Made by a program: the position numbers and the translations under genes | The notes under the pieces: generated by a model | Told to the model about the DNA's origin: nothing | The model's database searches: none | Seen by the model: the letters and a program-made list of their open reading frames with translations, nothing else | In this document: piece after piece, positions 21,571-64,000 of the stretch | Position numbering within the stretch: position 1 is the first letter of the stretch | How the letters are laid out: each line of letters starts with the position of its first letter | NCBI GenBank assembly: GCA_050084515.1 | Contig: CM114271.1 | Span: forward strand, 40,920,001-40,984,000 | Length of the DNA stretch: 64,000 bases | Direction of reading: 5' to 3' | From: Blasia pusilla | Taxonomy: Eukaryota

Positions 21571-21716
21571 AATTGAATCCATTGTGTCAGACAATTTCAC
21601 CTACCAAACTTCATCTTGTCAGTCAAATTCTGTCAGGAGAATCTGAGTTCCTATTCACTATAAATTAAACATTCTCATTCTCATTCTGAGTCTCCTCCCG
21701 TTAGAATCTTCTGGGA

Positions 21717-24679: not shown

Positions 24680-25150
24680 GTACCTCGCCTATTACCCCAA
24701 GATGAGGGAAGCATGCAACCCATCGGCCTTCGACGGGTTGCGCAAGTGCCTCGCCTTGTAACGCTTACATGAAGGAAGCGTGCAACCCATCGGCCTCCGA
24801 CGAGTTGCGCGGGTACCCCGCCTTGTTATCCCAAGATGAGGGAAGCATGCAACCGGTGCGCCTTCGACGGGTTGCGCAAGTGCCTCGCCTTGTAACGCTT
24901 ACATGAAGGAAGCGTGCAACCCGTCAGCCTGCGACGAGTTGCGCGGGTACCCCGCCTTGTTATCCCAAGATGAGGGAAGCGTGCAACCCGTTGGCCTCCG
25001 ACGTGTTGCGCAAGTGCCTCGCCTTGTAACGCTTACATGAAGGAAGCGTGCAACCCGTTGGCCTCTAATAAGTTGCTGTGTACCCCACCTTGTTATCTCA
25101 AGACGAGGGAAGCGTGCAACCCCCAAATCTCCGACGAGTTGCATGGGTAC
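24680..25150. repeat. 134-bp tandem repeat (~3.5 units), two palindromes per unit
   Basis: GTGCCTCGCCTTGTAACGCTTACATGAAGGAAGCGTGCAACCC recurs at 24746, 24880 and 25014. Confidence 0.9.
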
Positions 25151-25617
25151 CTTGCGTTCTTGCCCGAAGACGGCGGAGGCGCGCAACTTGTCGATCTCCG
25201 ACAGGTTGCTAGGATAGCTCGGATTTTTAACCCGAGGAGGACGGATGCCTCCAACCCGCGGGAAGCGTGCAACCCGTCGGAGCCGTCGAGTTGGTGGTTT
25301 TCATGTCCAGACTTCCATAACGGCCGACATGTCACCGTCGGAACGACAGTGCGATCCAACCGTCAGCCCAACGGCTCGAAAAGTATAAATAGGCGAGGGT
25401 TCGCTCATTTCCGGTTTTTCATTTCGCAATCTCGATAACTCTTCCGCGCAGCAGCTGACCTGGTACCAAGGGGCGCTTTACACAGCGACTCATCGCGAGA
25501 CGATTCGAGCGACTCAGCAAGGCGACTCATCGCGGCATCAGCAAGGCGACTCATAGAGGCGATTCATCGTGCACAGAAAGTAACTTTGTTGTCGAGGAGG
25601 AGGCATTTTCGGGAACA

Positions 25618-33673: not shown

Positions 33674-34392
33674 CTCCACGTCGTCAAAATTGGTTCTTCA
33701 CGGGCAAGGCATCCAACTATTTTTCCCACTACGTGCCACTGTCTGATTTGATCACTCTACGGAAGAACTCTACGCTAGAGTTCTATCCTTCTAACAGTCA
33801 GTCTCATGCTTCATCACCATCAGGAAAAGGGATTGGTCAACTTCAATTGTAATTGTATTGTAGACTCCCTTTCGGATAATCCACTCGGATTTTGTTCTTT
33901 GAGCATGATCTCACATGTGATCCCATGCTTCATTACCATTTGAACGAGGGATAGGTCTACTTCAATCGTGCATTGTGTAGCGTCTCTCTTTTGGTAGTAT
34001 ATTTGGATTTTTTTCATTGAGTATGGTTCTGACTGGCGATACCGTGCTCGATCACCACTTGGATTAGGGATTGGACTCAAATTTCCGTTTGGATTTTGTT
34101 CTCAAGTACATTTTACCACGCTTGGTAGACCATGGTTGCGGGCGTTGCATTCATCAATTCGGACGTTCAATGAGGAAGCGACTTGCGATTATACGGTTGT
34201 TATTCCACCAACACCAATTTCTCACTCTCAACTCTTGATATTCTGGCATCTCATTCTCAGCTCATTCTTGATCTTCCTCTTGTATCGTCGTTCATATCAT
34301 TGGTTTGTTTGCTTGAGGTAGCGTCAATCTTGGGTATCGTCCAGAATTCGTTGTGTTTCTCTAAAGTATTACACTTGCTCGCAAGTCCTATC

Positions 34393-34709: not shown

Positions 34710-37639
34710 GGTCCTATCCCTACATTTTACTCAGAAAATTGCTTCCTCCGATAAGTTATCCTACGGGGACAGAACTCATGCTACTTAGGGTTCTGCTTGA
34801 AGTGAAAGTTTAACATCGAAGTATTCGAGGTTGTGATTCTCTTTTTATCCACCTTCCATGTTCCCATCGGTCGATTACTAAGGTATGTCTGCCACAAACT
34901 AAATTCGAAATTCCCTTTAAATATTATGCGATGCTTGCTCTTTGTCTCCCTCCCTATGGGCAAGCCTTGGTGTGTGGATTGGTGATGCATGGATGCCGAG
35001 AATCACACATTGATTGTGCGTTTAGGATGACCTCTCTCTCTGAACTCTCTGCATTAATGGCCTGCCAAATTTCTAACCCAAATTTTGCGGTTGTAGTGAT
35101 TCTTTTCGTCTCACTCAGTGAGTAGCGCTCACTACTGCCCTGGACTCCTACTACTGTCGTTGGAGGAAGACATCCAATAAATAATTCTCTCCTGTTTCTT
35201 CATTCAAAGGATGTGTTAAGTTATGATTGGATGTTAGGGTACTGTGTGATGCTCAACTTTGAATTGGACTACTGTTTGATCATTGAGGCTGTGGAGGAAG
35301 GCATTTTTCAAAGTTGGAGTCTATTTTTTTATGCTGATTAGATGATGCGTGTTGCAAGGCCTTGGGGAATGCTGCACTGAGAGACTATTTCCGCCCGCTA
35401 CAATCTCTCTATTTAGTTGGTGAACGGAGTGTTGTGAATGAATAGGATTGATTTTTGAATAAGGATGGGAAGAATGCAATATTTACCCTTGTCTTCCACA
35501 ACCAAAGAATCAAACATGAGGCCCAATTCGCATCCGGATAGCGTCCTGGATGGCTGCTCTTCATTGTTATTGTTTGCAGAAAAGTGGCTCTTTGTTGGAT
35601 GCGTCGGTAGAGAGATCCACACCCACTATTCAAATTCTCTTCCATTGAGCTCCTCTGACATAATCTTGCAACACTTACCATCAACTCTTGTACCATGTGC
35701 TCTCTCTCTGTGGTTGGAAGGCTAGGATAGACACTATTTAATGAATACCCTCACTCACAAGTACCACAATCAATGCAAACCCTATGATTACAACGAACGA
35801 GAAGAGAGTAAGGTTTTCTTTTGCTTGCATCAGAGACTTTCAAGCGTAATTTGTTCCAACTTTTCAAGCGCTCCTCTGTCAGCATTGATTATCTACCTTT
35901 CATTAGATTCTTTCATAACAGTAATTGCTACGTCTACAGATGCTTTTTTTTGTCTTTAACTATACATCTGAAGCATCATATCTAAGTATTATAGGCTCTT
36001 TCCCACCCACTTCCTTTTCCTTGAATCTTTGAATCCCAGAGGTGATGGTTGGGAGAGAGGAAAATATGTCTTTTGCTAGTCGCTTATCGTGGAAAAACTC
36101 GCGATTTCTATCTAGTCATAGAATTCTCAAAAGACTACATGTGGGATGCCCACATTAGAAGACTATTGAGGAACGCCACAACAAGGTGGACGTTTTGTCA
36201 AGACTCTTGCGCTGCCATAAGATCACATTGTAAGCGGTAAATGATGTTTATCGGGTATCACTCTGTTGGATCTATGGTCCCAATATTACCACAAACACTA
36301 TTTAATCAGTACAATCTATTTCTTCTCTCTCCCTATCATGGCATCTTTGCTCAACGTGAACTCACTTTTCAATCTTGTGCATGTGTTCAACTGCAGCATC
36401 GCGTCAAGTGGCAGGTCCCAGGGTAGTTGTTTTAGTGACAATTTTCATCAAGTTGTCATAGTCGACTCATCAATTTTCTTGTGTTACTGTGCAGTAACCA
36501 TCTTCTCCCCTAGTCCTTGTTTATTTCATCGTCAATTGACACTACACTTGGATGCAATAAGATTCTCCTTCTTTGCAAGTGCTTTTATCTATTCATGTTG
36601 GTTTCTCACATTAGAATTTTATTCTTGCCCCCTAAATATGATTCTTGATTTCTAAGGGACTCGTCTTCAAGTTTGCAACGTTTTTTGATATCATAAAATT
36701 AATTAAGTTTCATGCTAACTAAACATAAATTAATTGTGCTTTAGAAAATACTTGAATATTTGTGGAAATAGATTCTCTCACATCTTAATAACGTGCAAAC
36801 TAATTTTACCTATACAATCTCAACCTGGTTACACCTTCTATTCTCCACAGTGATGGGCAATGACCTTGCACCCACGTGTCAAGCAAGATCTAGAAGGAAG
36901 TATCTTAGAAGATCCCTTGCATCAAATAAGTCCAAATAGGAACATTATCGCATGAAGAACATTATCGCATGAATGCATGAACTGGCTATTTGCAGATTCT
37001 TATCTGAGAAAATGGTAAGCAATTTTTTCACTTACAGTAAAGCAGATGCAACCATGGCTATTGTGGCTATGTCCAATATTTCAATCCACGCTCACGTATG
37101 TCAGTGGTGGAATCGACATCTAACCTACCATATGCCTTGCAATGGATTCTTGGTGAGCTATATAATACCTGAACCTAGAAAATTTCATGTCTGCAATTTG
37201 TGCATTGCCCATGAGCCGCGGACACACTTGAATGTCTATATGACTCCATCCTACATTAGAGGTTTGTTAAATCCAGATCCGTTGCAATTGCAACTTCTTT
37301 CTATAGTAGACTCCAGAATTGGAGTAAAAAAGAAATACAATGGTTTCCATAGGGGATTTTTCTCAGTAACCTCTCTTTTAGATTCTTCTTTAATTGGATT
37401 CAATGTTAGCAATGACCTAATTTCCATTACCTCTTCTATTCCAGCTACTATATACGAGTTGCTTAAAGTGAATTTTCATGTCAATCCCTTATACAAAGTC
37501 TATAAAGCTCTAGTAGAATTATCGAGTCCTTCATCAGGGATAGTGATTTTTCCTGCATCCTCGGTGCAAAGCATAATCAAATCCTCACAAGACAAAGGGC
37601 AAGTAACTCATAATATGAGTTATGATCCTTATGATCCTG

Positions 37640-40600
37640 ATCTTAACAACCATGTGATGTAATCTCCACTTCTTACTTAATGCAACTGCAACCACTGTTC
37701 TCCTAGTCGCCATCTTTGCAACATGGCTAAATGTTTCCTCATAATCGATACCATATTGTTGTGCATAGGACTTAGCCACCAATCTCGCTTTGTATCTGTT
37801 AATTGTACCATCTTGATTGCGCTTGATTTTGTAAACCTATTTGCAACCAATAGCTTCCTTACCGGAAGGTATATCAACCAACTCCCATGTTTGTTGATGT
37901 CTTAATGCAGCAAGCTCTTCCTCCATAACTTCCATCCATTCGGCTTTACTCGCAGTTTCTTCAAAACAACTCGGCTCTTGCTCTTGAAGGGTAGTCATCA
38001 TATATGCATGATGTGTCACAAGGAAACCTTCATTTATGAATATATGAACTGGATGTGTAACTCTACTTGATCTACGGAGTTGTTGTTCAAAGGTAGATGC
38101 CTCTGACACTTGACTCGAGCTCTGACTAGTGTTAACAGACTGAATATGTACTCTTCCCGTCCATGGACTCACAGATTTAATGGATGAATCTAGGACCTCT
38201 CCTAATCCTGCACTAGTACTTAGGGAAGTTGAAGACAATTTCTGTTGGTTTATAGTCATATTCTCCCCCTCAACAGACAAGTTTAAAGGTGGAATAGGCT
38301 CAGATGGAGCATATCATGACTTTAGCTCATCAAAGACAACATCCCAACTAATAATAAGTTTCCTGGAGGATGGAATGTAGCACTTATATCCCTTAGTTCC
38401 ATCAGCATAGCTAATGAAGATACATCTTTCATACTTGAGGCCTAATTTCTGACGTCTCTCAGAAGGAACATGAGCATAACAAATACAGCCAAATACTTTC
38501 AAGAAGGAAAAATCAGGTTTACTTCTTGTGAAGACTTCGAATGGAGTTTTATCATGAACTCCTGTTGTTGGAGTTCGGTTGATTAAGAAGACTGCACATG
38601 CTACAGCCTCTGCCCAATACACCTTAGGCATGTTCTTCTGATTCAACATAGCTCGTGTCGCTTCACCAATATGTCGATTTTTCCTCTCAGCCACTCCATT
38701 TTTTTGTGGAATGTAGTGGCAAGTCACTTCACGTTGGATGCCATTCTGACGTAAATAGTCATCAAACTCTGTTGAAAGATACTCTCCTCCTCCATCACAA
38801 TGCAATTTCAGAATGTGTTGTCCAGTCTGCTTCTCTACTAGAACTCTGAATGTTTGGAACACTGAGAATACCTCTGACTTGGCTTTCAAAAAGTATACCC
38901 ATATATACCTAGAGAAGTCATCAATAAATGAAACAAAGTACTGGCAACCACTAAGGCTCTATTGTGATGTTGTCCACACATCACTATGGATCAACTCCAA
39001 TATCTTGGATGTTCTACTACCTTGCTTTGAAAAAAGAAATCTAGCTTGTTTTCCTAATTGGCAAGCAGAACATACCTCTAACGTAGCAAGACTCGCTAAT
39101 TTAGGGAGTCCTATTACTATATTAGATGATGAAAGACTCTGTAATCTTTGAAGATTCATATGTCCAATTCTTTTATGCCACACATAGATCTCTGACTTGT
39201 TGGCCGCTTTGACCATACATTGTTGTTTGAATCTCTGGCATAAAAATATCTAATTTGAACATTCTGCTAGATCTAGTTCCTTTGGCTATCGTAGTCTGGT
39301 CATCCATTGTTTCAATGAAACAACCATCTGCGTTAAACTTCACTTGATAACCCTATTATACTATCTGTCCTACAGAGATCAGATTTCTTGCAATGGTAGA
39401 AACATAGAGAACATTTCCAAGAGCACAAAGACCATCTTATGCTATTAGAACTTTATCGGTATACATGATATGATGTTGAGTGTCATCTCCTATGAGCACA
39501 ATCGCAGGGTCTTTCACCGGCTCCAAACTACTGAACCATTTCGCTTGTGAGGTCATGTGATTTGATGCACCGGAGTCAATGTATCAATCTGCTGTCGAGT
39601 CTTTCTTGACCATTGCTCCCATATGATGAGTCATGACCAAGTGATCCTCCGTTTGTGAATGTTGTTGTTCTTGGTAGCGCTCTTGCTGTTGTTGCTCCAC
39701 ATAGTTTTGTTGTTGTAAGGCTCATATTTTCATATCTGCCTTCTTCTTGAAGCAAAACTTTGCATAGTGACCCTTTATCCCACAATAATTGCAAGATCCA
39801 GAAACCCTCTACTATTAACCTTGACCTCAACGGTTTCCACCATCCTCCCCATGTGATTGTGTTTGGTACTGGTTCGTAGTTGATTGAGTGACGTTATATT
39901 GAGTGTCTCTTCCTCCATATGCTTGATATCCACCACGACCATGGAAGTTTCTGCCACGACCCCTGCCTTTGTTTGATCCATAACCTACAAATATCGCACT
40001 CTCTTGCAGACTAGACGAGCTACCGCTACCTACTAGGCGCATCTCTTCACTGATCAACACAGGAACTAACTCTTGAAAGGTTGGATACTTCTCTCTCACA
40101 GAGATAGAGGTCTCAAAAGACTTGTAATCCTTTGGAAGGCCTTGAAGAGTGAATAAGATCATATCATCATCTTCTACTATCACTCCAATGCTATTCAACT
40201 GGTCAACAATATGTCTAATACTCAAAATATAATCATTGATGCTTTGCGATCCTTTCTTCGCTTCGTTCAATTTTTTTTTCAATTGAAGCTTTCTTGCCTT
40301 TGTAGATGTCTGGAACAGCTTTTCCAATGCATCTCAGGCCTCCTTCGGAGTATCAACATCTTGGATGTGACCTCTCATTGGCGAACTGATCGTTATTGAG
40401 ATGTAGTGGATTACTTGCCTTGCGCGTTTGTTCCAAGCGGGAACATTCAAGTCTGTTGAGTCACCTTCTGGCTTGGCCTCATCACCTGTGACAAGCTCCC
40501 ATAGTTCTTGACCCATGAGAAATTTTTTCATGCGAAACTTCCAGACATTGTAATTCTGCTTGTCTAGCTTCTCGCCTATGATTACTGCTGAAGAATACTC

Positions 40601-41430
40601 CATGATAAACGATTTCACTTACAAAAATTATTTTTTCATGCTTTCTACTGCTCTAATTGAAGCATAAATCACTCCTACACAAGAATCGACCTGAAATTTG
40701 CCAAAATTGATCAATTGTCTGAAATAACTAGTCGAAATTGGCCTGTAGAGAGCAAACTGCACAACTTTTCTTCACTAATTGCACTTTCCTATACTGAAAT
40801 TGCTGCTGCATGAGCTCAGAGTGTCAGAATCAAGCGATTGTGGGTGCGTTGGAAAGCTCTCAATGAGCTCTACCAGAAAATTACAACCAGCCTTTTTTAT
40901 CGTTTTATCCGATGCGGAACTTGACAGCTGAATCGACGGGGAAAGCCTTCAAAAATACCTTCAAAGTTTTATCACCATCAAAGCTCCACTTGAAATCTGC
41001 ACCCATTGAGCTCAGACTAAGATTTCCTTCTCCCAAACTGAAATTGTGCCTTCTCTTGCCTCTCTTCTCTCTTCAAACACCAAGTATTTCAAGTGATATT
41101 CTCCTCCCGCTCTGATACCACGTGGAAAATTGCTAAACAAGCGTAATTGGTGGAAAACGACTCTCACACACACACCACCATGGAGAACGAAATTTGCAAT
41201 GAGAGAATGAGTGGAGGCTGGTCCTCTTCTCAATTATATAGGGTATGTACAAGCAACCCTAACCCTATCCTTAACCATAGTCTCGAGTTAGCCTAACTGT
41301 GATTAACTAACCTTAGTTAAGATAATCGTGCTTAACTGACTAACCAAGATTAAGCTTCCCTACTTTGTGTGAGTGCCAAATGTAGCAGTTCATGTGTCTC
41401 ATGAGCTTGACTGTAACTCAATCTTCAATA
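37640..41430 (-). mobile_element. Ty1/copia LTR retrotransposon, degenerate, truncated early in RT
   Basis: Order gag (KLDKQNYNVWKFRM; CCHC ~39760-39795), protease (IDSGASNHMT ~39550-39580), WHKRIGH..C..C, integrase (HCDGGGEY..NGVAERKNR), RT start (QQYGIDYEETFS..W.LHHM.VK). No 3' LTR seen. Confidence 0.92.
41109..41120 (-). other. tRNA-iMet primer binding site of the copia element
   Basis: Minus strand reads TGGTATCAGAGC, immediately inside the putative 5' LTR (~41121-41430). Confidence 0.9.
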
Positions 41431-42385
41431 CTTTTGATGCACCAACGCAAGTGTTGACTGAAAAGGATATCCAATTTAGGGAAGAGTTTTAGACCTTGTG
41501 TGATAAGGCGTTGATACATCACTGCATCGAGTCTAGATATCATCTTCACGAGGATGGATTGGCAAAGAAAGTAGTTCAGGCAATGAAGAGAAGGTTATGC
41601 AAGGATGGCTTGCAACGAGGATATTTGATACCCACAATTGCCATAGTTGGGTAGGGAGTATCGCTTCAATCGACAACATCCTTGGCGTTGTTTTCACCGT
41701 ACTTTTTGCTCTATGGGAGAGAGCCGGATTTACTTGCATCTACTTGACGTGACATGACAGAGGTGTTGGACATTGATGATCCACATGTGTGGTTGCAAGC
41801 ATATTCTCAAAGGACAGATTTTTCATAGAGTTATGCCCATGGCATTTGAGAAATTAGCTATTGCTACCTCAATGCACAACAATACATTGAGGTGTGCAAT
41901 CATTCGTGGAGGTGTTACGGACCAAAGTCCTCATGGTGGAGGGATGGGATGATATGGTTTGGAAAGATCATGTGCGCAACTGTGTGCCATGTTATCTTCC
42001 AAACGTGGACGGGAAAATGGATCCAAACTTGGAAATGATATCTTTGGGCTTGTGTATGTTGTGTGGATCTACGAGGGTTACACCCACCATGTTAGTATGT
42101 GATGATGGTTCTCAAGGGTGGCATATATTGTGTTTGGCACCCCCTCTTGATGTATTTATCACGAGATGGTGGTTATATCCTAGATGTTTATAGGGTAGTA
42201 GGTCATGTCAAGTTCATATGATGGGAGTTAGGGAGACCGAACTGCCAGCTAGGGGCCGGGGCGGTTGTGCGGTCTCCATGTACACGCAAGAGTTCATTTC
42301 TTGTATATGTGTGAATCTACGTGTATGTTGGGAAGATCAATATTGTGTAGTGTGGATGTGATCAGCGATGTGTATGAGCACGATA
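41431..42385 (+). pseudogene. Older remnant of the gypsy family: integrase C-terminus, decayed PHD finger and 3' end
   Basis: WKDHVRNCVPC...CMLCGS..TMLVCDDGSQGWHILCL..PRC matches 56419-56838 (-). Ends GATGTGTATGAGCACGATA, like the terminus at 56112. Confidence 0.8.
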
Positions 42386-42387
42386 GT

Positions 42388-42973
42388 TATCATATCTTAG
42401 TTAGCGGCATATATAGTTCTACCGCGTCAACGACATAGAAAGTCAACGGGTTGTTTGGGTGTAACTTTATCCGGAGGTGTCGGATGAGGTTGACGACAGG
42501 CCTGCTGTAACGGAAATGTCATTTTTGCAATTTCCTTATTTTGGTCTTTGTCAACCAGTGACCAAGTCAACGATCAACCGAGTTATCGATTGGATGCCTA
42601 TTTTTAGGGGCAGAGCATTTTGGCTCTTCCAAAGCCTATAAAAGTGAGGAAGATGGCTTTCTCAAGTCATCTGTCTAATGTTGGGCCTTTGGAGCATCTC
42701 TCTTGCTGATGTGAGGCAAGAACTAGGATGTTAGCATCCGGATTGCCTTATAGTTGAGGGTTGTGACTCGATCTGCCGATATAGATTCAAGAGTGGAGTT
42801 GGCCATTTGAGCCATTTTACTCTGATTTTCGTTCTTCGGTCTCCATGTAATATATGAATGAGTTCATTTCTTGTATGTGTGTGGATCTACTCGTATGTCC
42901 GAGAAGATTGGTGTTGTGTGGTGTGGATGTGACCAACGATATGTATTTTTTAGCGATGTGTATACGTACAACA
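42388..42973 (+). mobile_element. ~590-bp LTR-like or non-autonomous unit
   Basis: Homologous to 52687-53346. Its last ~135 bp repeat 42270-42385. Confidence 0.6.
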
Positions 42974-43029
42974 AGGTGCTCCACATGAACTGACATTAGT
43001 TGCCCACATGTGATTAGATCGACGTCACA

Positions 43030-43600
43030 CTACCATTAGCCTCTAGCCTATTATTACTTGTTGGGGTGATATTAGCAACTTGCCTGTGATTAGCCTTCAG
43101 ACTACCATTAGCCTTAGACATGTGATTAGCCGTAGGACAACCATTATTATCCAGTCTATGATTAGTCATTAAGGTGATATGAGGAATCAGCACGTGATTA
43201 GTCCTTGGGCAACCATAAGCCTTCTCTGTATGATTTCCCGTCGGGCATACATTAGTAGACAACCTATGATTAGTTTTGTGGTTGATATTAGCATCCGACC
43301 TATGACGAGTCATCTGACAACTATTATCCTTCGCCCGATGATTCGTTGTTAGAAAACTATTAGCCTATGGTGTGTGATTACCCATTTGGCTAACATTAGC
43401 AATAAAAAATGGTTAGCACTCGGCCTATGATTAGCCGTTGGGTTGACATTAGCAATGGGCTTGTGATCTCTAGTCAGACTGACATTCGCACGTAGCTCAA
43501 GATTAGTCTTCAGGTTGACGTTTGCAACCTACCAACAATTAGTTGTATGACAACCATTAGCCTTTGGCATGGAAGTAGCCATTGGGTTGATTGGCAACAA
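43030..43600. repeat. Degenerate 36-bp minisatellite
   Basis: Units such as CCATTAGCCTTAGACATGTGATTAGCCGTAGGACAA in 36-bp register; gives a 12-aa periodic ORF on the minus strand. Confidence 0.75.
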
Positions 43601-51208: not shown

Positions 51209-52686
51209 CTTATCCCCTTAAAGTCCAGAAAACGTCTCCCACTCTCCGCGTCCCTCTCCTGCTTCTCCTCCGGATTGCGTCTTCCTATGAGTAACGACAG
51301 AGTGAGCAATTCTTCCAGACAATCCCAACCTTCGGCACCTGCAGCTCCGACAAGAACACCTAAACCCAAACCTTCTCATGCAACTGCACAACGGTAGATA
51401 TCCTTTCCTTCCACTTAGCTCCAGCTCACCGCTATGGGCTAGTTAGGCTAGTCAGTGGGATATGGGTCCCACTGACTGGTTCCACGGATATCCTTCTCTC
51501 CGACTTCTTTCCATTCTTTCCTTTGACCGTTCCATGCGACGCGATGCTTCTGCTCCTCCCCTCCATCGCCAGCCGCCATCTTTCTCACCGCTGCTCTAGG
51601 AGTTAAGTTACGGGCGCTCAGCTTCACTGCTATTCAACAACGTCTGACACTACGCTCCGCCAATTCTGGAGGTTCTCTGAATGTGTGTACGATCATGGCG
51701 GCGCTTCCACGGACGGTATAGGTTTCATGGACGAGGTGGCCGTGCTCCTAGGTTTGTCTAGTTCGTAGGTTCGTACGAGGTTCACACCATTTTTTTTAAA
51801 TGATTAAGAATGATTTACGAGCCAAAGGCTAAACCCCGAACTTCGGCAGCCATATATGGCGTCCACATTCACATTTCTCTCGGATCTCCGCAACCACGTG
51901 ACTGTTGAAGTAACTGTCTTGGGGCTAGTGTAAGTACATTCAGTAGCGGATTCGACTTTGTAACCCAATACAAGTGTCAAAGGTGTGGGTATTGGAGGTG
52001 GGTGGGCCGGGAAAAAACTTATAGCTCGTATATAAAAATCACCTTTAGTTCGTAGGAGAGTAGGACGGGAAGTTTTGGCACCATGGAGAGAAGAAAGAAT
52101 TGGAAAGACTGAAATAACATGTAGGGAAAAAGAGAATAGGACCAGAAGTTTTGGGATGGAATTAATAGGAGGTATTCTTGTGCTACATGTTATTAAAGTC
52201 ACACGAATATTATTACACAGATCTATTTGAGACATAAATGCAAAACTTTGATACATTGTATGGAGAAATCACACAAAGATACACTTAGGGGTCGTAATCA
52301 AGGCTTCCATTCATATGGAAGCCTTAGACATAAAATTACCATATGACCACGCGTACCTGTAGCTTAGCATAACCCATCCAATATCCTTGGTTTAGGAGTT
52401 TTTAGATGGAACACCAATGACTATGGAGCCCATGACGATGGTGGATGTTTTCGGTCTAAATAGCAACCCTTGCAACTTTCATGTCATGTCCTTGCTCGAT
52501 TCCCGCATGCGTGACAATCGTTTGTGAGGCATGTCCTTGTTATTTGTTCCTTCATATGTCCATATGTTCAATTTATACACAACCCACTAAAACTCGCTGA
52601 ATTGAAGATCATCAATATCTTAGGCTCTTTCCATATCCTTCTCTCTCAATGGTTCTCATGTCTCTTACTCAAAGATATCTAGTGTT

Positions 52687-53346
52687 TGTCACGTCATAGT
52701 TAGCCGACATGTAGAGTTGTATCATGTCGATGGCCTAGAGAGTCAATGGGTTATCTAGGTGTAACTTGATCCTAAGTGGTCAGATGAGATTGATGACATC
52801 TCTATTGCGTCAAGATAATCATTTAGGAAAATCCCTCTCTTTTGCTATTTTGCTCTAGATGACCGATTAACCAAGTGAACGATAACCTGAGTGCATGGGT
52901 TACCATTTTGAGTTGTTCTTGGGGGAAGAACACTTTTGGCCCTTCCCAAGGGTGTTAAGGTGAGGGAGATGGCCTTCACAAGCCATCTTTCTCGAGTTAA
53001 GCATTTGGAGCACTCATCCTTTTAGGGTTTGATAGGAGCTTGGGTATTAGAGTCTGGACTCCCTCATGGCGGAGGGTAGATATGGCTTGATATGCACATG
53101 TAGATTCAATGATGGAGTTGGTACGGCCCAAAGAAGACGAGATACTTTGTGGGTCCGAAGGGCCGGGGTGTGAGTCATTTTTGCTTCCATTTTTTGTGTG
53201 GTCTCGGTGTACATATATGAGTCTATTTTTGTATGTCCAAGCATCGATCTATCCGTGTGTTGGGAAGATTGACGGTGTTTATTATGTGGATGTGAACTGT
53301 GATGTCAATAGTGTAGTGAATACTAGTGATGTGTATGCACATGACA
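52687..53346 (+). mobile_element. ~660-bp solo-LTR-like or non-autonomous unit
   Basis: Starts TGTCACGTC and ends GATGTGTATGCACATGACA; homologous to 42388-42973. No TSD seen. Confidence 0.65.
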
Positions 53347-54000
53347 CCACTCTGTCTCATCAATGTTTGCCTACTTGCATGTTGACTCCTTTGATATTTG
53401 CGTCTCTATCACTTGATCGAGTTCCTCTCGAGACGTGAGGAAGTCTTACCGAATTTGTATTGTCCATAGGATCCAATATCTATATCATGACATATGTTTC
53501 TTTATAACATATGTCATGAAGAAACATGACATATGTTATAAATGCCAAAGCATCCTTAATGGTTATTATTAGTACATGTATACTCTCCATATCCCCCTTT
53601 TGACACAAAATATCTCCAAAGTCTTATTAATGTGTACCTACTATCATTCACAATGTTTCCTTCCATGCAATGTATCTATGTGAATCTCTCATAGGATCAC
53701 CTTTGATCCTTATTGGCCATCAATTCTCGTATCTTTTGTTAAGAGATACATGTTTTATATGTCTTCTACAAGATCCCTCCAAATTCTTTCTAGCCACACG
53801 TTTAGACAAATTGTAATCCTCTGGCAATTATAGTAGCACTTCTACACAAAAATCCTCTCATTAAACAAAGAACCAAAAATTTTGAAGTTCTCTTAAGCAT
53901 CCCCTTGAGCCATGGAGTGGAAGAAAAAGGTCCCCAAACTATAAAAAAATTGAAATAAAAAACTCAAGTGGCGCGTCTCCTCTCCAAAAATCTTGCATAA

Positions 54001-54003
<3 letters not shown>

Positions 54004-54059
<56 letters not shown>
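54004..54059. repeat. (CT)n microsatellite
   Basis: Uninterrupted TC dinucleotide run. Confidence 0.98.
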
Positions 54060-54063
<4 letters not shown>

Positions 54064-54350
54064 AGATCTTCTCATTCTATATTTATAAAATCTGATATCA
54101 TCAAGCACACTCACACTCCATATCTCTCCTTGATGTCAAACCAAACTTATCTTCATAGTGAGAGGTTTTGGTCACTCATAAGGCAAGGACCACCATAATT
54201 CCGTTGCATAATGGAAGAAGATTCAACAAAGAGAGAATGAGCTCTCAAGCTCTTCCTCCTTGAAACATATCTCCTTTCCCATCCCAAAGATTTTGCTCCT
54301 TGAGATATACTCTCTCTCCCTTTCCCAAGCCCTCTCCTTAGTGAGTTGCG
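54060..54350 (-). mobile_element. Degenerate fragment related to the LTR-like sequence at 290-540
   Basis: Shared ATGTCAAACCAAAC and TTCAACAAAGAGAGAATGAGCTCTCAAGCTCT. Confidence 0.7.
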
Positions 54351-56418
54351 CACCATGTCATCCTTCTCTATACGAAGTCATCCTTGACCTAACATGATTG
54401 ACATGCTTATAACCTTCCTAGGTACACTGTGTAAATACTCTCTACTCCAATATAAAAGACATGGCAACTTGAATACTTAAGCTAGTGCACCCCAGATTTC
54501 TTAGGTGTCTTAGGCTTTAAGGTTTGGAGTGAAGGCAACACTTTCTTATATGCTTTTTAGATTTCTCCAAAATTGAGCCTTTTTGTGAGAAAAATGATAT
54601 TGAAATTTCTTGATGATTTTTTTATTTGGTGCCTATAATTGGAAACTTGCAAATTTTTCATAGAATGTAAGACGTGCCAAACTAAATATCACCAACGGAT
54701 GATGGCTATGGTTTTGATAAACAAGACATCATTATTTTGGTCGTCTGAGATTGTCTTAACCTTGAAGAAAGTGTTTCCTTCACTCCAAGCATATTTTTCC
54801 TCCACCGCTTAAATTCTTCTCTCCTCAAATTTTCTCTTTCTCTACTTGCAAATATCCTACTTGCCAATTGATTCTTCTTACTCTTCAATGCAACTACAAA
54901 CTTTGCAATGCAAAGCTAGCAAACACACATTCCCCTCAAAAAAACAAACAGACACTACTACTACTACTTTTGAAGTAACTCGAGCTTATTTGGCTATCCT
55001 TTCAGTCACGTCATTTATTATTGTAATTTGGAAGAAAAATCCAAAGAGTTGTGGAAAGAGCTTCACAGCAACTATATAGTTGCAAGCTTGCGATAGTTAG
55101 AATTGCAAGACAATCACATATTGTGATCCCAAGCCACACTTTGCAATTATGCCGTAGACAAGATATGTCATTTTATTACACTTGCAACACAATCGCATGA
55201 CACTTGCAATCAACCAAAAGTTAGCCGCATGACAACCATCAAGTACTCGTAAGCTAGTTGCAAATTTGCAATTCTCACTTGCATAGCATCTGCAAACTTG
55301 TCGTAAAGAAGAACTATTATTTCTTAATAATATTAATTTTTCAAGAAAATCTGCAATTTTGGCCAATAAAATTCACATTCCATATTTTAACAATTGCAAA
55401 ATCTCCCAAAATCCATTTTAATACAAAATATTTCCAAAATTTCTAGTAATCTACAACGAGAATCATCCTACTATCTACATCAAGGTCGTGCGTCTAACGT
55501 ACCACACCCACGGGACTATGCAAGATGGGATCACCGGATCATATGGCTACTTACTAGTAGGACCCTCACTAACTAGCCTAGAAGTATCCATTTGGTGCCA
55601 ACTACGAATAGTCCCTCTAGATCCACTAGGCTTATTGCTGAAGGATGACCTCCTCGATTTGAGGGTAGGTTCATGATTTATGAGGTGACTCTCGAGCACC
55701 TTATCATTTTATGTCATGTTCTCCTCCTACTCCCACTTCTCCCCCTCCTTGATGTAGGAGCCTTCATCATACAAAGGGTTAGATTCCACAATCTGATTTG
55801 ACCCAAGTTGTATTGGAGGACGTTCCTCATCAATATGAGGAATGCTTGACTACACACACTTTGACTCACTTACACTAGTATTCTGTAATAATCTGAAAAT
55901 GCTTTAAACATAGAAACACTCTATAATTTAGGTACTTACCAAGGCTACTAGGATATCCTGATTGGCAAAGATGTCCTCTTGTCTCCTCCAACCTAGCCAC
56001 ATAACCTCTATCACCTCAATAGTGGGGTACTCACTATACTTTGTGAATTGCACAAGACACTCACGTAGTTAGTTAAACATTCTAAAATGTCACTCATATA
56101 TTTTAGGAATCTGTCGTGCGCATACACATCACTACACAACATAGATCGTTGTCACCGAACACACACACAAACACACACGATCCCATGCTAACTCATGGCA
56201 TCCAAACAACAAGACAAGAAGTACCAAAATATCTCCAATCGCCCCCTAGATGGTGGTTAGGTCCCTCTAACTCTAGATAGCCATCTATCCCTACCTACCA
56301 TGACATACATCTCTCCGACACTAAGAGCAAGAAGGCCGGGTGCTCATGTGGCCCCATCGTTAGTCGCCTTCTTGTCATCCATGTCATAGACATAAGTTGA
56401 AATATAGAACTACCTACT

Positions 56419-56570
56419 CTATGAACATCTGGGACACATCCATCGTTCCTTAGGAACCCTAGTGAGAGGTGGCGTCAAGCATGCCATATGCCATCCTCTC
56501 GAACATCCATCACACACTAGCATAGTGGCTGCACCACAAGCTAAACCACACAACATACATCGCAAGCTTG
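56419..56570 (-). other. PHD finger at the integrase C-terminus
   Basis: CMLCGLACGAATMLVCDGCSRGWHMACLTPPLTRVPKERWMCPRC is a complete C4HC3 pattern with the conserved W. Confidence 0.95.
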
Positions 56571-59500
56571 CAGGAACTACTGCTAAGCTTGGATCAATTG
56601 TATCGTCAATGTTCGGAAGGTGACACGGTGCACAGTTACGCACATGGTCCTTCCAAACCATACCATCGCGTCCCTCCAATAAGAAAACACTTGATGGCAA
56701 AATCTCACGTACTCTCAAGATGGTGCGCTCTGGAGTCACATCCAACGTCGTGGGTGCCGTCTGCTGCAAGTAAACATAGTCTCCCTCATGAAACCTCCGG
56801 ATAGTAGGTCGATAACCACCCCCCCAAAATAGTCGCATACCTCAATGTATCCCGATGCTACGCAATCGCCAAGTTCTCAAAGGCCATGGGCATCACTCTC
56901 TGAAAAAATTCAGCCCTCTAAGAACATGCTCGCATCCATACATCACGGTCATCAAGGTTCAATACCTCACCAACATCTTGATGAATGGTCGTAGGTAAAT
57001 GGCTCTCAGCCATACAAAAGCAAGTACGGTGAGAAAGACGTTAAGGATGCCTGCCTGCTGAATTTGTATCCCATCGCCAACCACGGCAAGTGAAGGTCCC
57101 AATCTCCTATGTGACCTCTCTGCAAGCCATACTTGCGTAGTCCTCTCTTCATCGTCTGCACAACCCACTCCGCTAGTCCATCCGCCTCAGGATGATCTTG
57201 TGAAGTAGTGTCATGGTCGATTAGTGCCTGATCACACAAGGTCTGAAACTCCCCACGAAACTATGTACCCTAGCCTGTCAACACCTCAATTGGTGCGCCG
57301 TAATGACTCAACACTAGATCTAGGAAGGCATACGCTACTCCCTCACTTGCTTTGTCAGGCAATGCAACCAACTCTATCCACTCCGAGAAGTGCTCGACCA
57401 TCACCAACACATAACGACTATGGCGCTTTGTCAAAGGCAAAGGTCTTGAAAATCCAAACTCCATCTATAACCTAAACCCATGATCGAAAGTGGATGCAAC
57501 TGTGGAGTCGAACGATGCTCGGACTCGATCACACACCATGCATCTGGCAACAAACTGTTGAACATTAGTCTGCATGCCTCGCCATCAATACTGAATCTGG
57601 AGCAAGCTGTACGTCCACTTCACTCCAAAATGACCCAAATTCTCCTAGGCATGACGCACCAAATGTGCTCTCTGCAAAGGATGAGGCACTACACGCACTC
57701 TACCATCCTCCCACACTCGCAACACATGTGTGCCCTCCCACCAGAACCGTCTGGCTCGCTATAGGATCCGATCCCGCTCTCTAGTACCCACTGTGCTCGC
57801 AACGTTGCCAGTACGCAGGTACTCCAAGACCACTCCATCCTTGTGAATGTCTCGGCCACTTGTCGTCTCCTCACCGGCCTCTAGATCTAAGGACTCTCCA
57901 TCAGACCTTGCCATCGAAGTCTCAAAAATCTGGCTCTCCATAGCCAACAAGCCCAAATAGGCTCACGCATGCCATCCTGACACCAACTCCTCATCACTCT
58001 CACCATGCCAACGAGCTCCAATCACATATCGCTGACTTGGGCATGGGTTACGGCTCAAACCATCTACATCCTGGTTTAGCATCCCAGGTTTATGCACCAC
58101 TTGGAAGTCATACTCTTGCAACAAAAGAGCCCACCTTGCAAGCTTCCTTGTCAGCTTTTCCGACTCCATCAACCACTCAAGTGGCTGATGATCAGAAATG
58201 ATGGTAAAGGGATTGCTGAATAGGTAACATCTAAAATGTGCGACAACCTACATTGCAGCCAAGCACTCACCCTCATACGAGCTATACTTTGTCTCTGCGG
58301 CGTTGTTCGAGCGACTAGCGTAAGCCACCACGAACTCTCTATCATCATTGTCATGCTGGGTGAGCACGGCTCCAATCCCCGACACGCTTCAATCGCTATG
58401 CAACTGGAAAAGACGCCCCCTGATTGGTCTCCTTAATATGGTCGCGGATGTCAATCTGTCCTTGAGCATCAGAAATGCTCTCTCCTGCTCATCCCCCTAG
58501 TGCCATTCTTGATCCACCTTGGTCAGCAAGGTTAGCGGCTTTGCAATCCAACTGAAACCCTTGACGTACCGTCGATAGAAGTTCGCCAATCCCATGAATG
58601 CACAAACTCGACTCATATATGTAGGGCGTGGAATGCGTGAAATAGCCTCTACCTTCATCTCTTGCACACCAAGGCCCCCTGGGTATATCGTATGACCCAA
58701 GTACTCAATCTGGTCATCGAAGAACTTGCACTTGCTTGGATGTAGCTTCAACCCATGTAACTGTAATCGTCGAAACACCTCCTCTAGATGTCGCTAATGC
58801 TCCTCAACCGTGGCGCTAAAGGCTACGATGTCATCAATATTATATCTACCAAAATCCACACCTGCCAAGATCCAATCCATGACCCTCTGAAACTCTGCCG
58901 GGCGTTCTTTAGCCCAAATGGTAAGAACCGCCATTGATACAAATAATCCTTCTCGTAAGGATCAATGCCCCAAAATGCCGTCTTCAACTTGTCCTCCAAT
59001 CTGATAGGCAGGTGATGGTATCTGACTTGCAAATCCAATGAACTGAAGACCTTTTGCATGTCCAATCGCATCAAAGATCTCCTCAAGGGTGGGCATGACA
59101 TACCTATCGCACTTCGTGTGCTGATTTATAGGTTGGTAATCTCCACACATCTGCCTATCCGTCCAGTTGCCTGCACATCCTTCTTGGCGGGCGTGACAAT
59201 GGCAGATGCATACTCTCCATGCAACATCTCCACTAGTCCTACGCCAACCAAGTCTTGGCTCCTACTCTGAATCAAATCCCTCTTCATGTCACTGTACCTA
59301 TAGGGTCATCGGAAGATCGGCTTGTCACTTGACAACTCAATGCGGATCCCTGGACCCTTTAGCGAACCCAAATCCTGCATACTAAATGCAAAACAACTCC
59401 TATAACTCCTAAGGAACTGATGTATCTGGCGCCACTCCCCTCTTGTCAACTTAGGCCGATATATGGCTCCCAAGTATCCATCGTGACTACAGTAGGATTC

Positions 59501-59839
59501 TCTGGCGTGGGTGTTGGTGGTTGCTATGGTACAATCCCGTCTTGGACAACAAAACTCGACTGCTCCCCTGCAGCCTACTACAAAATTGGATCTCCATTTG
59601 AAGTATCCTAAACCACGCTCGATGTTGTGGCTACCATCTCCTTGGGTACCTGCAAAACATCCCAAGAAGTCCAAGGGTGTCTCTCTCGATCATCCTTGGT
59701 GTGTCGATCTCCTCAAGTCTCGCCCCCAGCCACTGCCTCAACCGTCTTGGTAGGCATGGCGCTCACCAATGCAACTTTTGTGATCTGTCGTATTCTCAAA
59801 CGACGTTGCTCAGCTACTCCTAAGTTGAAAATCCATGTC

Positions 59840-60745
59840 AAGCAGTTCATGTCCATCGCATGACCCAAGACATGACATCGTGATGCCTTCGATAGTGACG
59901 GTATTGCCGTCACTCCTGTGGGGAATCCCATTGCTTGCTCTCGCTCATCGGCATTGGGCTCCACCAACATCTGTACTGGTCATCTCAAACCAAGCCAGCT
60001 CCGGCCTCCTTGAATGCATAGGAAGGGGGAAAACTCACCAATGTGGGAAAGGCTGCTCGTGGCATGCCAATCCTGTTGACCATAATCAACAGCGATCGAT
60101 CATCGTGCCTCATTTCCTGTGATCGACGGCCCGGATCCAATATAGAATCCACCAACAAATCGGAGGGATGCTCCACTCTCACATAAGCCCTCCGCAACAC
60201 CTCATGTGGTACCAAGTTGGTCCACCAAAGACGCAGGCGGTGTGCTCTAGAACCTACACTCGCCCTATCTAAAAACACTGTCAGGCCGATCCATGCGCGC
60301 ACTTGATGTGCACTCGTCACCACGCGGGACCTCGAATCGCCCCAAATCGGCACATTCTCCAAAATGTATGTTGGAGAACGAGGTTGATGCTCATGTAAAT
60401 ATTGCAATATCTGCATCATCTCCCAAAACAACCTGGACCAAGTATCAGCTACCTTGTCCATCACTCGATTGGCCCTGACACGGCCAACCACCAATGACCA
60501 AGTCTATGGTCCCTACCCGCTCCAAGCCCTGCACCCCCAACAATGAAATGTCCCTCGATAGGGAACTCTGGTAAACCTAAATGGCGGACGTAGACAAGAA
60601 GTCGGGAAACTGCGCCACATGTTGAAGTGAAGCGCGCCTCGCAACATCGTCAATCTCCACATACAGGTATTGCTGCACGCGCACTCCAACATGCAAAACA
60701 ACAGCTAACCCAATGTTGATCCCTCCAAAGAGATCCAACACCCAA
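59840..60745 (-). pseudogene. C5-cytosine DNA methyltransferase domain within pol (frameshifted)
   Basis: Motif I VLDLFGG (60721-60741), II YLYVEID, IV DLVIGGWPCQG (~60472-60505), VI YILENV (60351-60368), VIII HRLRLWWTNL, IX/X EREQAMGFP..SRCHVLGHAM, all in canonical order. Confidence 0.93.
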
Positions 60746-62639
60746 ATATCCTCCTCTAGAATACACCACACAATCGGGGTGGTGTCCAAAGGAATCATAG
60801 CAGCACTCCCGCCTACTTGGGATTCCTCTGACCCGTCACACTCTAGTGCAAACGTCTCGCTCCACGCGGTCTGCACATGCTCACTGGCTAAGTGTCGAAG
60901 CTCCTCAGTCGAGCCCCAAAGCGGCACCTCTCCTCCACGGACTGATGCTGCTACCATGACACTCCTCTCCATATAAATATTAGGAACGGGCATATCCTCT
61001 GCATGGACATGTCCTTCAATCAAATCACTAGGCCAAGTGATGGCAGTGCTAAACGCTGCTAAGGTCGCCATCTCTCATGGCCGTCACTCGATCATTGCAT
61101 CTGTGAATCAAACGGGTAATGAGCTAAGGCGCCCATCACCTGACTGCCATCTTGGTTTGTAGGACCCTCAATCCTCCTAGTAATATAGGGAAAACCCCAT
61201 CGGGTATAACATTGCTTCACCAACCAAGACGTCGTAGGACTCTGCATCAGTCACGATCGCCTTGGCTCGCACCACGGACTCATCTGTAGGATGTCCCAGG
61301 CGAATCCTCACCACCATCTCTTGTCAAGTGATATAATGTGTGGTATTTGCTCATCCAAGGATGTCTGTATCCAGAATGGACAATGCTCCATATCGGCTCT
61401 CGTCAAGCCCAATCCTCTAAATGACGCTTTCCCCAACATCAGGGGTTGCGATCCTGAATCCAACAAGATGCGCTGCGGACTAAAACCTCTACCTCATGGA
61501 CTCACCAACTGGAAGACCTTTCCCCAGTTACCCAGCAAAATAACACCAAGAGAAGCCATGGCATGCTCTATCGCGGATCTAGCGGGCATCTCCGCCATCC
61601 TAGCAGCCACAACCTGCCATGAATATGACGTGGACGTATCAAGCTCCAAGGCCAAGTCCATCACCTTCTCTGCAATCATCTCTCAACATGATGCAAAAAT
61701 TCCAACTCCATGCTCACATAGCATAGCGACCAGCCGAAAAACCTCGGTGGGTGTACCTCCCAACGTCACAACATTCGAAGCAAAAAATAAAGGAGCGTGG
61801 TACACAACGATGGCTGCCCCCAACAACGTGCTCAACACATGCCCCTCCTGAGCATCAGCAATATGAGTCATCACACTCGCTTCTCCCATCGCCCTCTGTG
61901 CCTGCACACCAACAACATCACCAACTCTCCATGAACTTTGATCAGGATCTCTAGATCTCACTGATCTATCCTAAAAGACGTGACAAATGTTAGCCATCTC
62001 AACTAAATGTATCCTCCTCTGGTGGGTTCCTAGAACCACTTCTAGAGGGATCTCCCCACTAACCCCCCCCTCCCTCTTTTTCCATGGAAAGAAAGAGAAA
62101 AGAAGCAAGTCGTAAAATGACAAGGGCTTTGCTACATCTCCAAGGAGTCTCTTTGGCAAAGATAAGGCAGAATCATAGGTTGAAAATTGCGGAATGAGTC
62201 AAATAAAGGGGTTAGTGGCAATAAATCCTTTGTTTGGCGTTTGCCATTATCTTGTGGCTATGTTGTGATTGACATCGCCATTATTTGTGCGATTGTCATG
62301 CGAGTATCAAGAGCCACAAGAAAATTGCATGGGGATTCAAACTTTGCAACTACCTAGCGACTATGGGCACTTGCATACAACGTGTGGCTATGAGAAGTCG
62401 CAATCGAGACCGTAGTTGCAATCGCGGGAAAAGTGGATGTCATTAATCAACCACATAGTGAGCACTCACAATTCATATTCACTAGACAGCCACAAAGCAC
62501 CCATACGTAAAGGTAGAGACAAGGAGTGCTTGCCATAGAATCCATATGAACAAGCCTATCACCTTATGTTAGATAGTGATTTACGTATACATGTTACTTT
62601 TTGACTTGTGAATCTAAATGTCATAGTATGAATCTACAT

Positions 62640-63560
62640 GAGTTATATTGAACTTGGGCATATAAAAAGAATGAGACATACCATCAAGTAAAAAGGAGGG
62701 AAATGAATTTCCCTAAGGCATAAAATGGTCAACACATCCTCTTTTGAAGATGTGAGATTCGTAAGATCCCATATTTCCACACAAAGTTGATGAAACACTC
62801 GTGACATATGCACAATAGTCATCCCCACAACAACTTTCATGAAACTTCATAAGCAATATGCAAGCAAAAATTGCATACAAACATGAAAGACATGGGACTT
62901 TAAACTTCCAAAATTTAATCTTGACATTTGCTTTTGTAAAGCACGTACATGCATAAGCACTTGGCACTTTGAGTGCACCCACTCTCACATTCAAAACTTG
63001 TATCCTATCAATATCAATAGTTATTACATAATCTACTTCAATTTCAACTTAACTTGGCTCTACTAGGATAAGATTAATGCCATAACTGAAGATAATTATC
63101 CCGAAAAAATTGGTGTTTATAATGATATCAAAATCATCTTTGGGTTGTGTAAGAAGGATTTTGTCAAATTTAGGCAAGATATGAATCAAATCCAAATTAT
63201 GTTGAATCAACAAGTCTTGAAAAATGCCCAATGTAGAAGTAGGCATTAGACCGAGAATATTAATTGGGATATTGGGGCACAAAATGAGAAAATTTGAGTC
63301 AGGTTCATGTCAAAATGTATGTTGCTTCTTTAGACACCACATTTTTTTTAAAGGATCTACAAGTCAAGGTTCACATCTTCTTTGCCTAATTTTATGGGCA
63401 ATATCAAACTCCATTTTTTTTGGGTTCGCTAGAATTACCTCACCTTAACACTTGATACTCAAGCTGGATTTGCACATGTCTCAATCGTCTTGTTGAATAA
63501 GTGTGCCATATAGCTTCTCCATGTATGGATGATCCCTATCTTTGTACCGTCTATGGCATT
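62640..63560 (-). pseudogene. CACTA/En-Spm transposase remnant
   Basis: GSLKSHVFHVCMQ...SRVFHQLC...TILCLREIHFPPF resembles the CACTA GLKSHD.H..MQ / LC.LE..FPP.FFD blocks; DHPY near 63530. Confidence 0.65.
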
Positions 63561-64000
63561 GTGTGAAGGTTTAGAGTAGTAAAAGTTCACTCGTAGTCTA
63601 CAAACAAAACATCCTTGCTAGTTATCCTTTTGTGCAATGACTCAAGAGGATCCCACATTCGGTATCATTAAAGACAGAACAATATCTAGTATCGAGTTAT
63701 ATATACAATACAAATCATTGAATTTCCCTTGCATTTTCCCTAAGTCTTTACTTGCGGCCTAATCCGCAAGATGGATATGTAGTAAGGAGATACGTGTAAA
63801 TAATGGTGGGTGGATGGAGGTGGAGGGGTATGTATTAGTAACATAGTTGGAGAGGGTTATGCCACCATCTTTTATGAAAGGGCAATGTCATTGGCTGCTT
63901 TATTTGGCAAGGGAGGAAAGTATTATAAGTCACATACACTGTAAATGGATGCATTTGTTTGAGCACTACATTGAAGATGGATTGAAGGCTTTGGTCTATA

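Follow-up and report, generated by a model that had tools for sequence, protein, structure and literature searches.

The 64,000-nt stretch of DNA analysed here (the window; contig CM114271.1, nt 40,920,001 – 40,984,000) carries on its minus strand, between nt 61985 and 56112, a Gypsy-type retroelement with a DNMT3-type C5 cytosine methyltransferase inside pol and a PHD finger at the C-terminus of its integrase. The locus is very probably a decayed and internally deleted copy of a Gypsy-DNMT3 retroelement of a bryophyte-type lineage, whose family works along the lines proposed below (bryophyte-type is a label for similarity to the related protein P0002, and is not taxonomic). Read from 61985 to 56112, the pol order is protease, C5-methyltransferase, reverse transcriptase (RT), ribonuclease H (RNase H), integrase and PHD finger. 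The succession of protease, RT, RNase H and then DDE integrase, recognised by Pfam searches of the open reading frame (ORF) pieces and by tblastn, makes the element Gypsy-type. A transposon with a de novo methyltransferase of its own is a paradox, since cytosine methylation is the main weapon of the host against transposons, and in print such elements have so far been recorded from dinoflagellates and one streptophyte alga.

The methyltransferase domain is spread over four collinear pieces (nt 59785 – 60792, minus strand), detected by tblastn and by a family profile. Alignment with the Marchantia protein Mp_8g17980 (P0004) gives, in this order, motif I VLDLFGGINIGL, motif II YLYVEIDD, motif IV LVIGGWPCQGQS (GGWPCQG), motif VI YILENVP, motif VIII GSRAHRLRLWWTNL (RAHRLRLWWTNL) and motif X EPNADEREQAMGFPTGVT (EREQAMGFPTGVT). 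The Pro-Cys-Gln of motif IV, with the catalytic cysteine, is encoded at nt 60475 – 60483 and the Glu-Asn-Val of motif VI at nt 60351 – 60359 (both minus strand). An initial annotation of this DNA had listed the same series together with a motif IX, which could not be identified separately. The motifs fall in ORF pieces 60577 – 61074, 59985 – 60503 and 59713 – 59979, and the domain is interrupted by a stop (nt 60577 – 60579), by a frame change just after motif IV (near nt 60448 – 60503), and by a stop and frame change near nt 59980 – 59987. The key catalytic residues are all still readable.

Taken singly, the pieces are weak evidence, and relatives were therefore needed. In phmmer searches of the PDB, piece 60577 – 61074 matched DNMT3A and 3C only, and weakly (E about 0.7 – 1.6), while piece 59985 – 60503 gave chance matches only. 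A profile hidden Markov model (A1, 350 positions) built from an alignment of nine family domains matches the window at profile positions 3 – 76, 79 – 119, 121 – 276 and 281 – 344, with E values of 2e-17, 1.2e-12, 8.5e-67 and 1.2e-28; apart from a second copy of the element (see below), the next match among the 1689 six-frame ORFs of the window has an E value of 6. When A1 was run against all PDB sequences, the first 29 matches were DNMT3A/B/C (E 2.9e-21 to 8.9e-15), followed by six of DRM (4.1e-11 to 2.4e-8), by M.HaeIII and M.HhaI (about 1e-6) and, far behind, by DNMT2 (about 1e-4). An AlphaFold model of P0002 (predicted local distance difference test 68.2, predicted template modelling (TM) score 0.73, low confidence at residues 1 – 28 and 264 – 304) was compared by Foldseek, and all listed matches to rank 50 were DNMT3A or DNMT3B (best E 4e-15, target-normalised TM score up to 0.72). 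The profile ranking and the predicted-fold matches together identify the domain as a DNMT3-type C5 methyltransferase with an unpermuted motif order, situated in pol between protease and RT, as the tblastn order also shows and as had been claimed from the motifs.

Because this copy is broken at either side of the domain as well as within it, each time by a stop or frame change, it might be supposed that a host DNMT3 fragment or an unrelated insertion has come to lie in a Gypsy element by accident at this one locus. The chance of this is negligible, and the idea is already refuted by the recurrence of the same order. It is found in the second window copy, in the Marchantia protein P0006, a single chain with DNA_methylase ahead of RVT_1 and RNase H, and in loci L046, L029, L003, L010 and L053, which belong to a set of 80 related loci taken from metagenome contigs (L001 onward). 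In addition, the domain is held within uninterrupted single ORFs of 2027 to 3609 amino acids (aa) at algal-type loci L067, L069 and L071. The methyltransferase is thus a trait of the family, as the initial annotation had concluded from motifs I and II in the second copy; these were recovered at nt 33503 – 33655 (plus strand; A1 positions 9 – 41, E 2.3e-8), where the DNA is 79% identical to nt 61310 – 60655.

The PHD finger had been overlooked. It is encoded at nt 56425 – 56559 (minus strand), within ORF 56419 – 56841 at the C-terminus of the integrase, and matches Pfam PF00628 with an E value of 3.3e-10 (40.3 bits against a cut-off of 24). Its best PDB matches (E 1e-13 to 1e-7) are PHF12, KDM5 (Lid, 5A, 5B), CHD4, KAT6A, PHF21A, DPF3, AIRE and UHRF1. 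The region is 72% identical to its counterparts in L046 and L029, and in comparison with those loci it is the best-conserved part of the element. Pfam detected no chromodomain at the integrase C-terminus, the PHD finger standing in that place.

The repeats that bound the coding region are best seen in complete relatives. In L046, a repeat A (nt 1676 – 2017) recurs at nt 10350 – 10691 with 92% identity, and a repeat B (nt 10238 – 10350) recurs at nt 10693 – 10805 with 94% identity, giving the arrangement A-coding-B-A-B. L029 has the same layout, with repeats of 86% and 91% identity, and partial versions are present as B-x-B in L010, L053 and L067 and as A...A in L003. In both L046 and L029, A begins with TGTCATG, B ends with CACGACA, two letters separate the first B from the second A, and the first B is preceded by a purine tract, CTAGGGGGGCGA, that is also found ahead of B in the window. 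Gag-protease, DNMT, RT-RNase H, integrase and PHD finger lie between the first A and the first B, and exact 4-bp target duplications are present (AAGG in L046, TCTC in L029). A full element of this lineage, represented by L046 and L029, is about 9.1 kb long, with TG...CA ends and a 4-bp target duplication.

Two standard classes were considered for this arrangement and rejected. A canonical long terminal repeat (LTR) retrotransposon (Ty3/gypsy, Metaviridae) would match in its TG...CA ends and 4-bp duplication, but the window copy has no LTR pair and the complete relatives are A...B-A-B. The designation as Ty3/gypsy in the initial annotation therefore holds for pol but not for the ends, the related elements having split direct repeats in place of plain LTRs. 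A DIRS, Ngaro or PAT element is contradicted by Pfam: both P0020 and the window pieces show rve and Integrase_H2C2, and neither shows a phage-integrase domain.

The limits of the window copy had been placed at nt 56112 and 61985, and these prove to be exact: the element starts with TGTCACG at 61985 and ends with GCACGACA at 56112, and loose DNA read ends from the same organism pass into unlike flanks at both points (157 before 56112, agreement 0.39; 225 behind 61985, agreement 0.38). The 5' flank CATT (nt 61986 – 61989, minus strand) is the putative target-site duplication partner of GATT at nt 56108 – 56111, with three of four bases matching. Some 100 DNA reads, with a few RNA reads, pass directly from 61985 to 56111 – 56114, one to four letters lying between. 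As this junction of 3' end to 5' end is nearly as frequent as the true flanks, plain LTRs do not fit, and split direct repeats do.

Little of the terminal repeats remains in the window copy. Of repeat A there are only the 35 terminal nt (61951 – 61985, minus strand), which start with TGTCACG and are matched at 94% identity at nt 765 – 799 (plus strand) and 9189 – 9155. Inward of 61951, these two copies and 439 DNA reads share one common continuation that differs from the window copy, so that the latter has lost the rest of A, the leader and gag. Repeat B is present once (nt 56112 – 56239, minus strand, ending in GCACGACA), preceded by a purine-rich, polypurine-tract-like sequence, CTAGGGGGCG, at about nt 56239 – 56249 (minus strand); the second A and the second B of the A-coding-B-A-B layout are missing. 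In a search of nt 52000 – 64000, no repeat in direct or inverted orientation reached 40 nt, and the copy thus lacks an LTR pair. The read depth rises from about 0 – 2 in the flanks to 4 – 20 in the interior of the element, about 92 in the bin at 61951 – 61985 and about 460 in that at 56112 – 56239, and at 56239 there are a further 592 inward read departures.

The coding region is likewise in an advanced state of decay. The end of gag and the aspartic protease region (nt 61308 – 61970, minus strand; tblastn with P0004, P0006 and P0235) contain several in-frame stops and one frame change, although the protease motif ILLDSGSQ is preserved in ORF 61308 – 61493, with DSG at nt 61452 – 61460. RT and RNase H (nt 57717 – 59452, minus strand), recognised by Pfam RVT_1 and RT_RNaseH (E 1.1e-12) on pieces, have many stops and two frame changes; here P0006 aligns by tblastn at 53% identity, with seven stops within one high-scoring segment pair (HSP). 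The DDE integrase (nt 57000 – 57884, minus strand), with its zinc-binding part and rve core, is identified by Pfam rve on piece 57270 – 57464 and by tblastn with residues 1092 – 1386 of P0020. Between nt 61856 and 56674 the tblastn alignments of relatives pass through frames -3, -2, -3, -2, -1, -3, -1 and -2, and there are 8 in-frame stops in HSP 61374 – 60448 and 13 in HSP 59153 – 56997. With at least seven frame changes and more than 20 stops in all, the copy is frameshifted, as first noted; it is dead, internally deleted and itself functionless.

Where the window copy differs from DNA reads of sibling copies, A or T in the window against G or C in the reads (A>G at 37 places, T>C at 42) is more frequent than the reverse (C>T at 16, G>A at 17), as expected if the copy has decayed by C-to-T transitions. 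RNA reads on the region number 98, 160 and 122; most are 95 – 99% alike, they are concentrated on the terminal repeats, and nearly all come from one strand, which is the sense strand provided that the library was stranded in the usual way. They represent at most a low, family-level transcription and not expression of the window copy.

The family is widely distributed. A 172-aa piece from the window finds 20 longer proteins, with a best E value of 3.4e-53 and 60% identity (Calypogeia fissa, Marchantia polymorpha and metagenome records), and a precomputed PF00145 match exists for 17 of these 20 first matches. Searching 1.84 billion representative sequences with A1 gave 479 clusters at E ≤ 1e-30. 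E values below 1e-70 were reached by each of the best 150, many of which are polyproteins of 1000 – 3400 aa. Named records come from Marchantia, Calypogeia, Sphagnum fallax, Closterium (six of the ten proteins in one cluster look-up), Mesostigma, Chromochloris, Scenedesmus, Haematococcus and Cymbomonas. Most of the 255 domain proteins that carry other domains have the order RT, RNase H, DNMT, integrase, PHD (72 complete, plus partial forms). DNMT precedes RT in bryophyte, Closterium and some unnamed proteins, whereas in chlorophyte relatives it lies between RNase H and integrase. Seven algal-type loci (L063 – L065, L067 – L069, L071) have an intact DNMT frame, some with a single ORF of 1500 – 3600 aa. 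Most algal members (proteins P0020 to P0258) have Glu-Cys-Gln in motif IV instead of Pro-Cys-Gln, with GWECQD in 60, GFECQD in 14 and GWECQG in 11 of 196 full domains; the bryophyte clade keeps Pro-Cys-Gln.

A FastTree phylogeny was calculated from 172 domain rows and midpoint rooted, with unnamed rows removed when their identity to a retained row exceeded 90%, and with the window represented by its 172-aa piece only. In this tree the window piece groups with Calypogeia as its sister (support 0.877), and both belong to a 12-member clade with Marchantia and Sphagnum (0.944). This position, together with the relatives of a Copia-type element in the window (described below), points to a land plant as host, probably a liverwort, and supports the land-plant occurrence that the initial annotation had suggested.

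The difference in domain position raises the question of whether the liverwort family took up DNMT3 independently of the Klebsormidium elements, and is then a convergent kind and not a member of Gypsy-DNMT3. In bryophytes and Closterium the domain precedes RT, whereas 112 other leaves of the tree have it after RNase H, so that the module must have moved or been exchanged at least once. No Klebsormidium protein was present among the named matches, one listing of which covered proteins of up to 2000 aa, nor among the 30 proteins of three cluster look-ups. Opposed to this, all 255 domain proteins match one profile over its full length, and the PHD finger follows the integrase in both forms. All leaves with DNMT before RT fall in one clade of 33 that includes none of the 112 after-RNase-H leaves, with a support of only 0.716 and with 26 of the 33 leaves having no second domain by which to judge the order. 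Finally, the Klebsormidium element, as described in the available text of PMC5890265, likewise combines a DDE integrase with the rare A-coding-B-A-B layout. An independent acquisition appears rather improbable on this balance, and membership in Gypsy-DNMT3 is preferred.

Several observations weigh against the interpretation of the locus as a remnant of a Gypsy-DNMT3 family that works as proposed. Pfam DNA_methylase (PF00145), recommended by the initial annotation as a HMMER check, found none of the window pieces when these were searched singly, even at an E value of 10, the motifs being divided by the frame breaks; of eight rescanned relatives, seven scored above the cut-off (34.9 – 43.0 bits against 22), over profile positions ~48 – 155 of 324 only. 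The observed/expected CpG ratio of the element (0.68) is not below that of the flanks (0.41 – 0.44), and is uninformative. The A-coding-B-A-B layout of the window copy, with 35 nt of A and one B left, is reconstructed from reads and relatives. The likely kinship with KnitGypsy-Dnmt3 of Klebsormidium nitens is based not on a tree but on common features of architecture and repeat layout, and the placement of the host among liverworts rests on the relatives of transposons. Among bryophyte-type loci (L001 – L062), the DNMT frame is intact in 3 of 62, compared with 7 of 18 others, and in those of 8 kb or more no plus-strand ORF exceeds 646 aa; since the bryophyte-type copies recovered are for the most part dead, it is doubtful whether the family is still active in land plants. 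Lastly, the isolated Gypsy-Dnmt3 domain of Klebsormidium produced no methylation in yeast, a result which its authors, in the available text, called inconclusive, since human DNMT3B failed too (PMC5890265).

The yeast result would also be accounted for if the domain were no longer a DNA methyltransferase, serving instead as a structural or DNA-binding pseudo-enzyme of Pol, or if it methylated RNA, such as the transcript of the element itself. RNA methylation was raised in the discussion section of PMC5890265, as available, for a DNMT borne by a long interspersed nuclear element (LINE), and motif IV is often Glu-Cys in the wider family, which is unusual for active C5 enzymes. However, the catalytic cysteine is kept even in the Glu-Cys forms, and the canonical motifs (FGG, PCQ, ENV, RxR and the GF of motif X) are retained in the window copy and in the whole bryophyte clade. 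The nearest solved relatives are the DNA enzymes DNMT3A/B, with DNMT2 far behind (see above). The ratio of nonsynonymous to synonymous substitution (dN/dS) of the domain is 0.24 and 0.21 for intact diverged copies (L003 – L024 and L004 – L024). Two window pieces compared with L003 gave 0.17 and 0.21, and the near-identical L003 and L004 gave 0.77 (dS 0.06); dS was saturated in four of the nine pairs compared. We consider the loss of DNA methyltransferase function unlikely, while giving it some weight, and retain the view that the domain probably acts on DNA.

Starting from the domain identity and order, the conservation, the repeat layout and the ends that were observed, the working of a Gypsy-DNMT3 family can be pictured as follows, each step being conditional. 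The methyltransferase would be made as part of Pol, and would methylate cytosines de novo at position 5, either in the new complementary DNA or in the DNA at a new insertion. Many PHD fingers of the kind seen here bind histone H3 tails with unmethylated K4, and for this reason the PHD finger may tether the integration complex to H3 tails, probably those with unmethylated K4. Such tethering could keep new insertions clear of active promoters. In reverse transcription, the template that restores complete ends may be the internal B-A junction, as proposed for split-direct-repeat elements.

Other members of the family are found in the window. The 5' end of a second member (repeat A and leader, nt 9155 – 9976, plus strand) is 84% identical to nt 799 – 1 and includes the terminal 35 nt. 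Its gag follows at nt 11424 – 12332 (plus strand; tblastn with P0004 residues 4 – 325, E 8e-37), and the end of gag, the protease and DNMT motifs I and II at nt 32514 – 33733 (plus strand), where the copy breaks off after motif II. Between its gag (to 12332) and protease (from 32514) lies an inverted duplication (nt 13718 – 22539 and 23248 – 32280) with arms of about 9 kb and 78 – 94% identity. The ORFs of this duplication (up to 343 aa) had no Pfam match, and for the 343-aa ORF the ESM Atlas gave only low scores (0.82, low recognition). A third member, recognised by DNA similarity and the terminal 35 nt, is represented by its 5' end at nt 1 – 799 (minus strand) and runs off the start of the window. 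An integrase-PHD fragment (nt 41421 – 42198, plus strand) has 67 – 70% DNA identity to nt 57296 – 56414 and probably derives, judging by its sequence, from an element of this kind that belongs to a different subfamily; short tandem repeats follow it at nt 42264 – 43274.

A Copia-type element is situated at about nt 36000 – 40400 (minus strand), with gag (Retrotran_gag_2), integrase core and an SH3-like domain. Its named relatives are from ferns, conifers and angiosperms (50 – 64% identity), two bacterial-labelled records being the only exceptions. A (CT)n-type microsatellite is present at about nt 53990 – 54095 and reads as an SL-repeat run in one frame.

These data suggest that the streptophyte form of DNMT-bearing retroelement reaches land plants (liverworts and Sphagnum) and is widespread in green algae, that the DNMT always travels with the PHD finger of the integrase, and that the split-repeat layout is kept despite the DDE integrase. 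Four points go further than the published description as available: the occurrence in land plants and in a wide range of green algae, a PHD finger that is constant, a methyltransferase module found in two positions, and A-coding-B-A-B repeats that accompany a DDE integrase together with TG...CA ends and 4-bp duplications. The initial annotation had presented the element as a novelty. As an occurrence in land plants this is supported, but the element is not isolated: annotated proteins of the family are already public, without comment, in Marchantia, Calypogeia, Sphagnum, Closterium and chlorophyte records, and the novelty is therefore smaller than had been thought. No paper on DNMT-bearing Gypsy elements in liverworts or mosses, or on the Marchantia gene identifiers, was found within the literature searched. 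As Marchantia is genetically tractable, the role of a transposon methyltransferase would become testable in a land plant.

On a broader and more speculative plane, these elements may go back to one ancient green-lineage stock that combined an integrase and A-coding-B-A-B repeats with a DNMT3 'writer' and a PHD 'reader'. In the stock ancestral to both Zygnematophyceae and land plants, the DNMT module might then have been shifted from behind RNase H to a place ahead of RT. Vertical persistence would have carried the lineage into bryophytes, where a few copies are perhaps still active and contribute de novo methylation that host genes do not encode. This scenario is put forward tentatively.

Among known systems, the host enzymes DNMT3A and DNMT3B (solved structures) share with the family domain the catalytic fold, the motif order, motif VIII (AHR.R..W.NL) and motif X (E.E...GFP). 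They differ in sequence (about 22% identity) and in motif IV, which is PCQ in the family and PCN in the aligned human DNMT3A, and the family has no PWWP or ADD region; it does have a PHD finger, but at the far end of the polyprotein. Chromoviruses (Ty3/gypsy elements with an integrase chromodomain) are alike in the fusion of a histone-tail reader to the integrase C-terminus; here, however, the reader is a PHD finger, there are no paired LTRs, and a methyltransferase has been added. EpiLTRs, described in a preprint (bioRxiv 10.64898/2026.05.21.726589), are also LTR-type elements that pair a cytosine methyltransferase with a chromatin reader, but according to the part of the preprint available their DNMT is sister to DNMT4, lies at the 3' end of pol, and is accompanied by an adenine methyltransferase and a chromodomain. 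The same portion treats 'streptophytes (Gypsy-DNMT3)' as known and as a separate acquisition.

Closest are the elements of de Mendoza et al. 2018 (PMC5890265), compared here by the available parts of that publication. SymbioDIRS-Dnmt3 of Symbiodinium, for which the arrangement A-coding region-B-A-B is described, resembles the present family in the Dnmt3-type domain in Pol, in these repeats, and in the shuffling of domain order between subfamilies. It carries a tyrosine recombinase, whereas the present elements have the DDE type of integrase (rve), end in TG...CA and duplicate 4 bp of the target. A Gypsy-borne Dnmt3 is given there for K. nitens only, the supplementary species table does not include Marchantia, and the words 'PHD' and 'chromodomain' are absent from the main text. 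KnitGypsy-Dnmt3 is the nearest counterpart, with a non-permuted Dnmt3-type domain in the Pol ORF, the Gypsy domain composition and a streptophyte host. The legend of Fig. 4c gives its repeat arrangement as 'the same' as that of SymbioDIRS-Dnmt3, and it is thus alike in the A-coding-B-A-B layout met in L046 and L029, relatives of the window family. Purifying selection on the domain is common to both (Ka/Ks < 0.2 in K. nitens, dN/dS 0.17 – 0.24 here). The two differ in their hosts, the present one being apparently a land plant and a bryophyte similar to liverworts.

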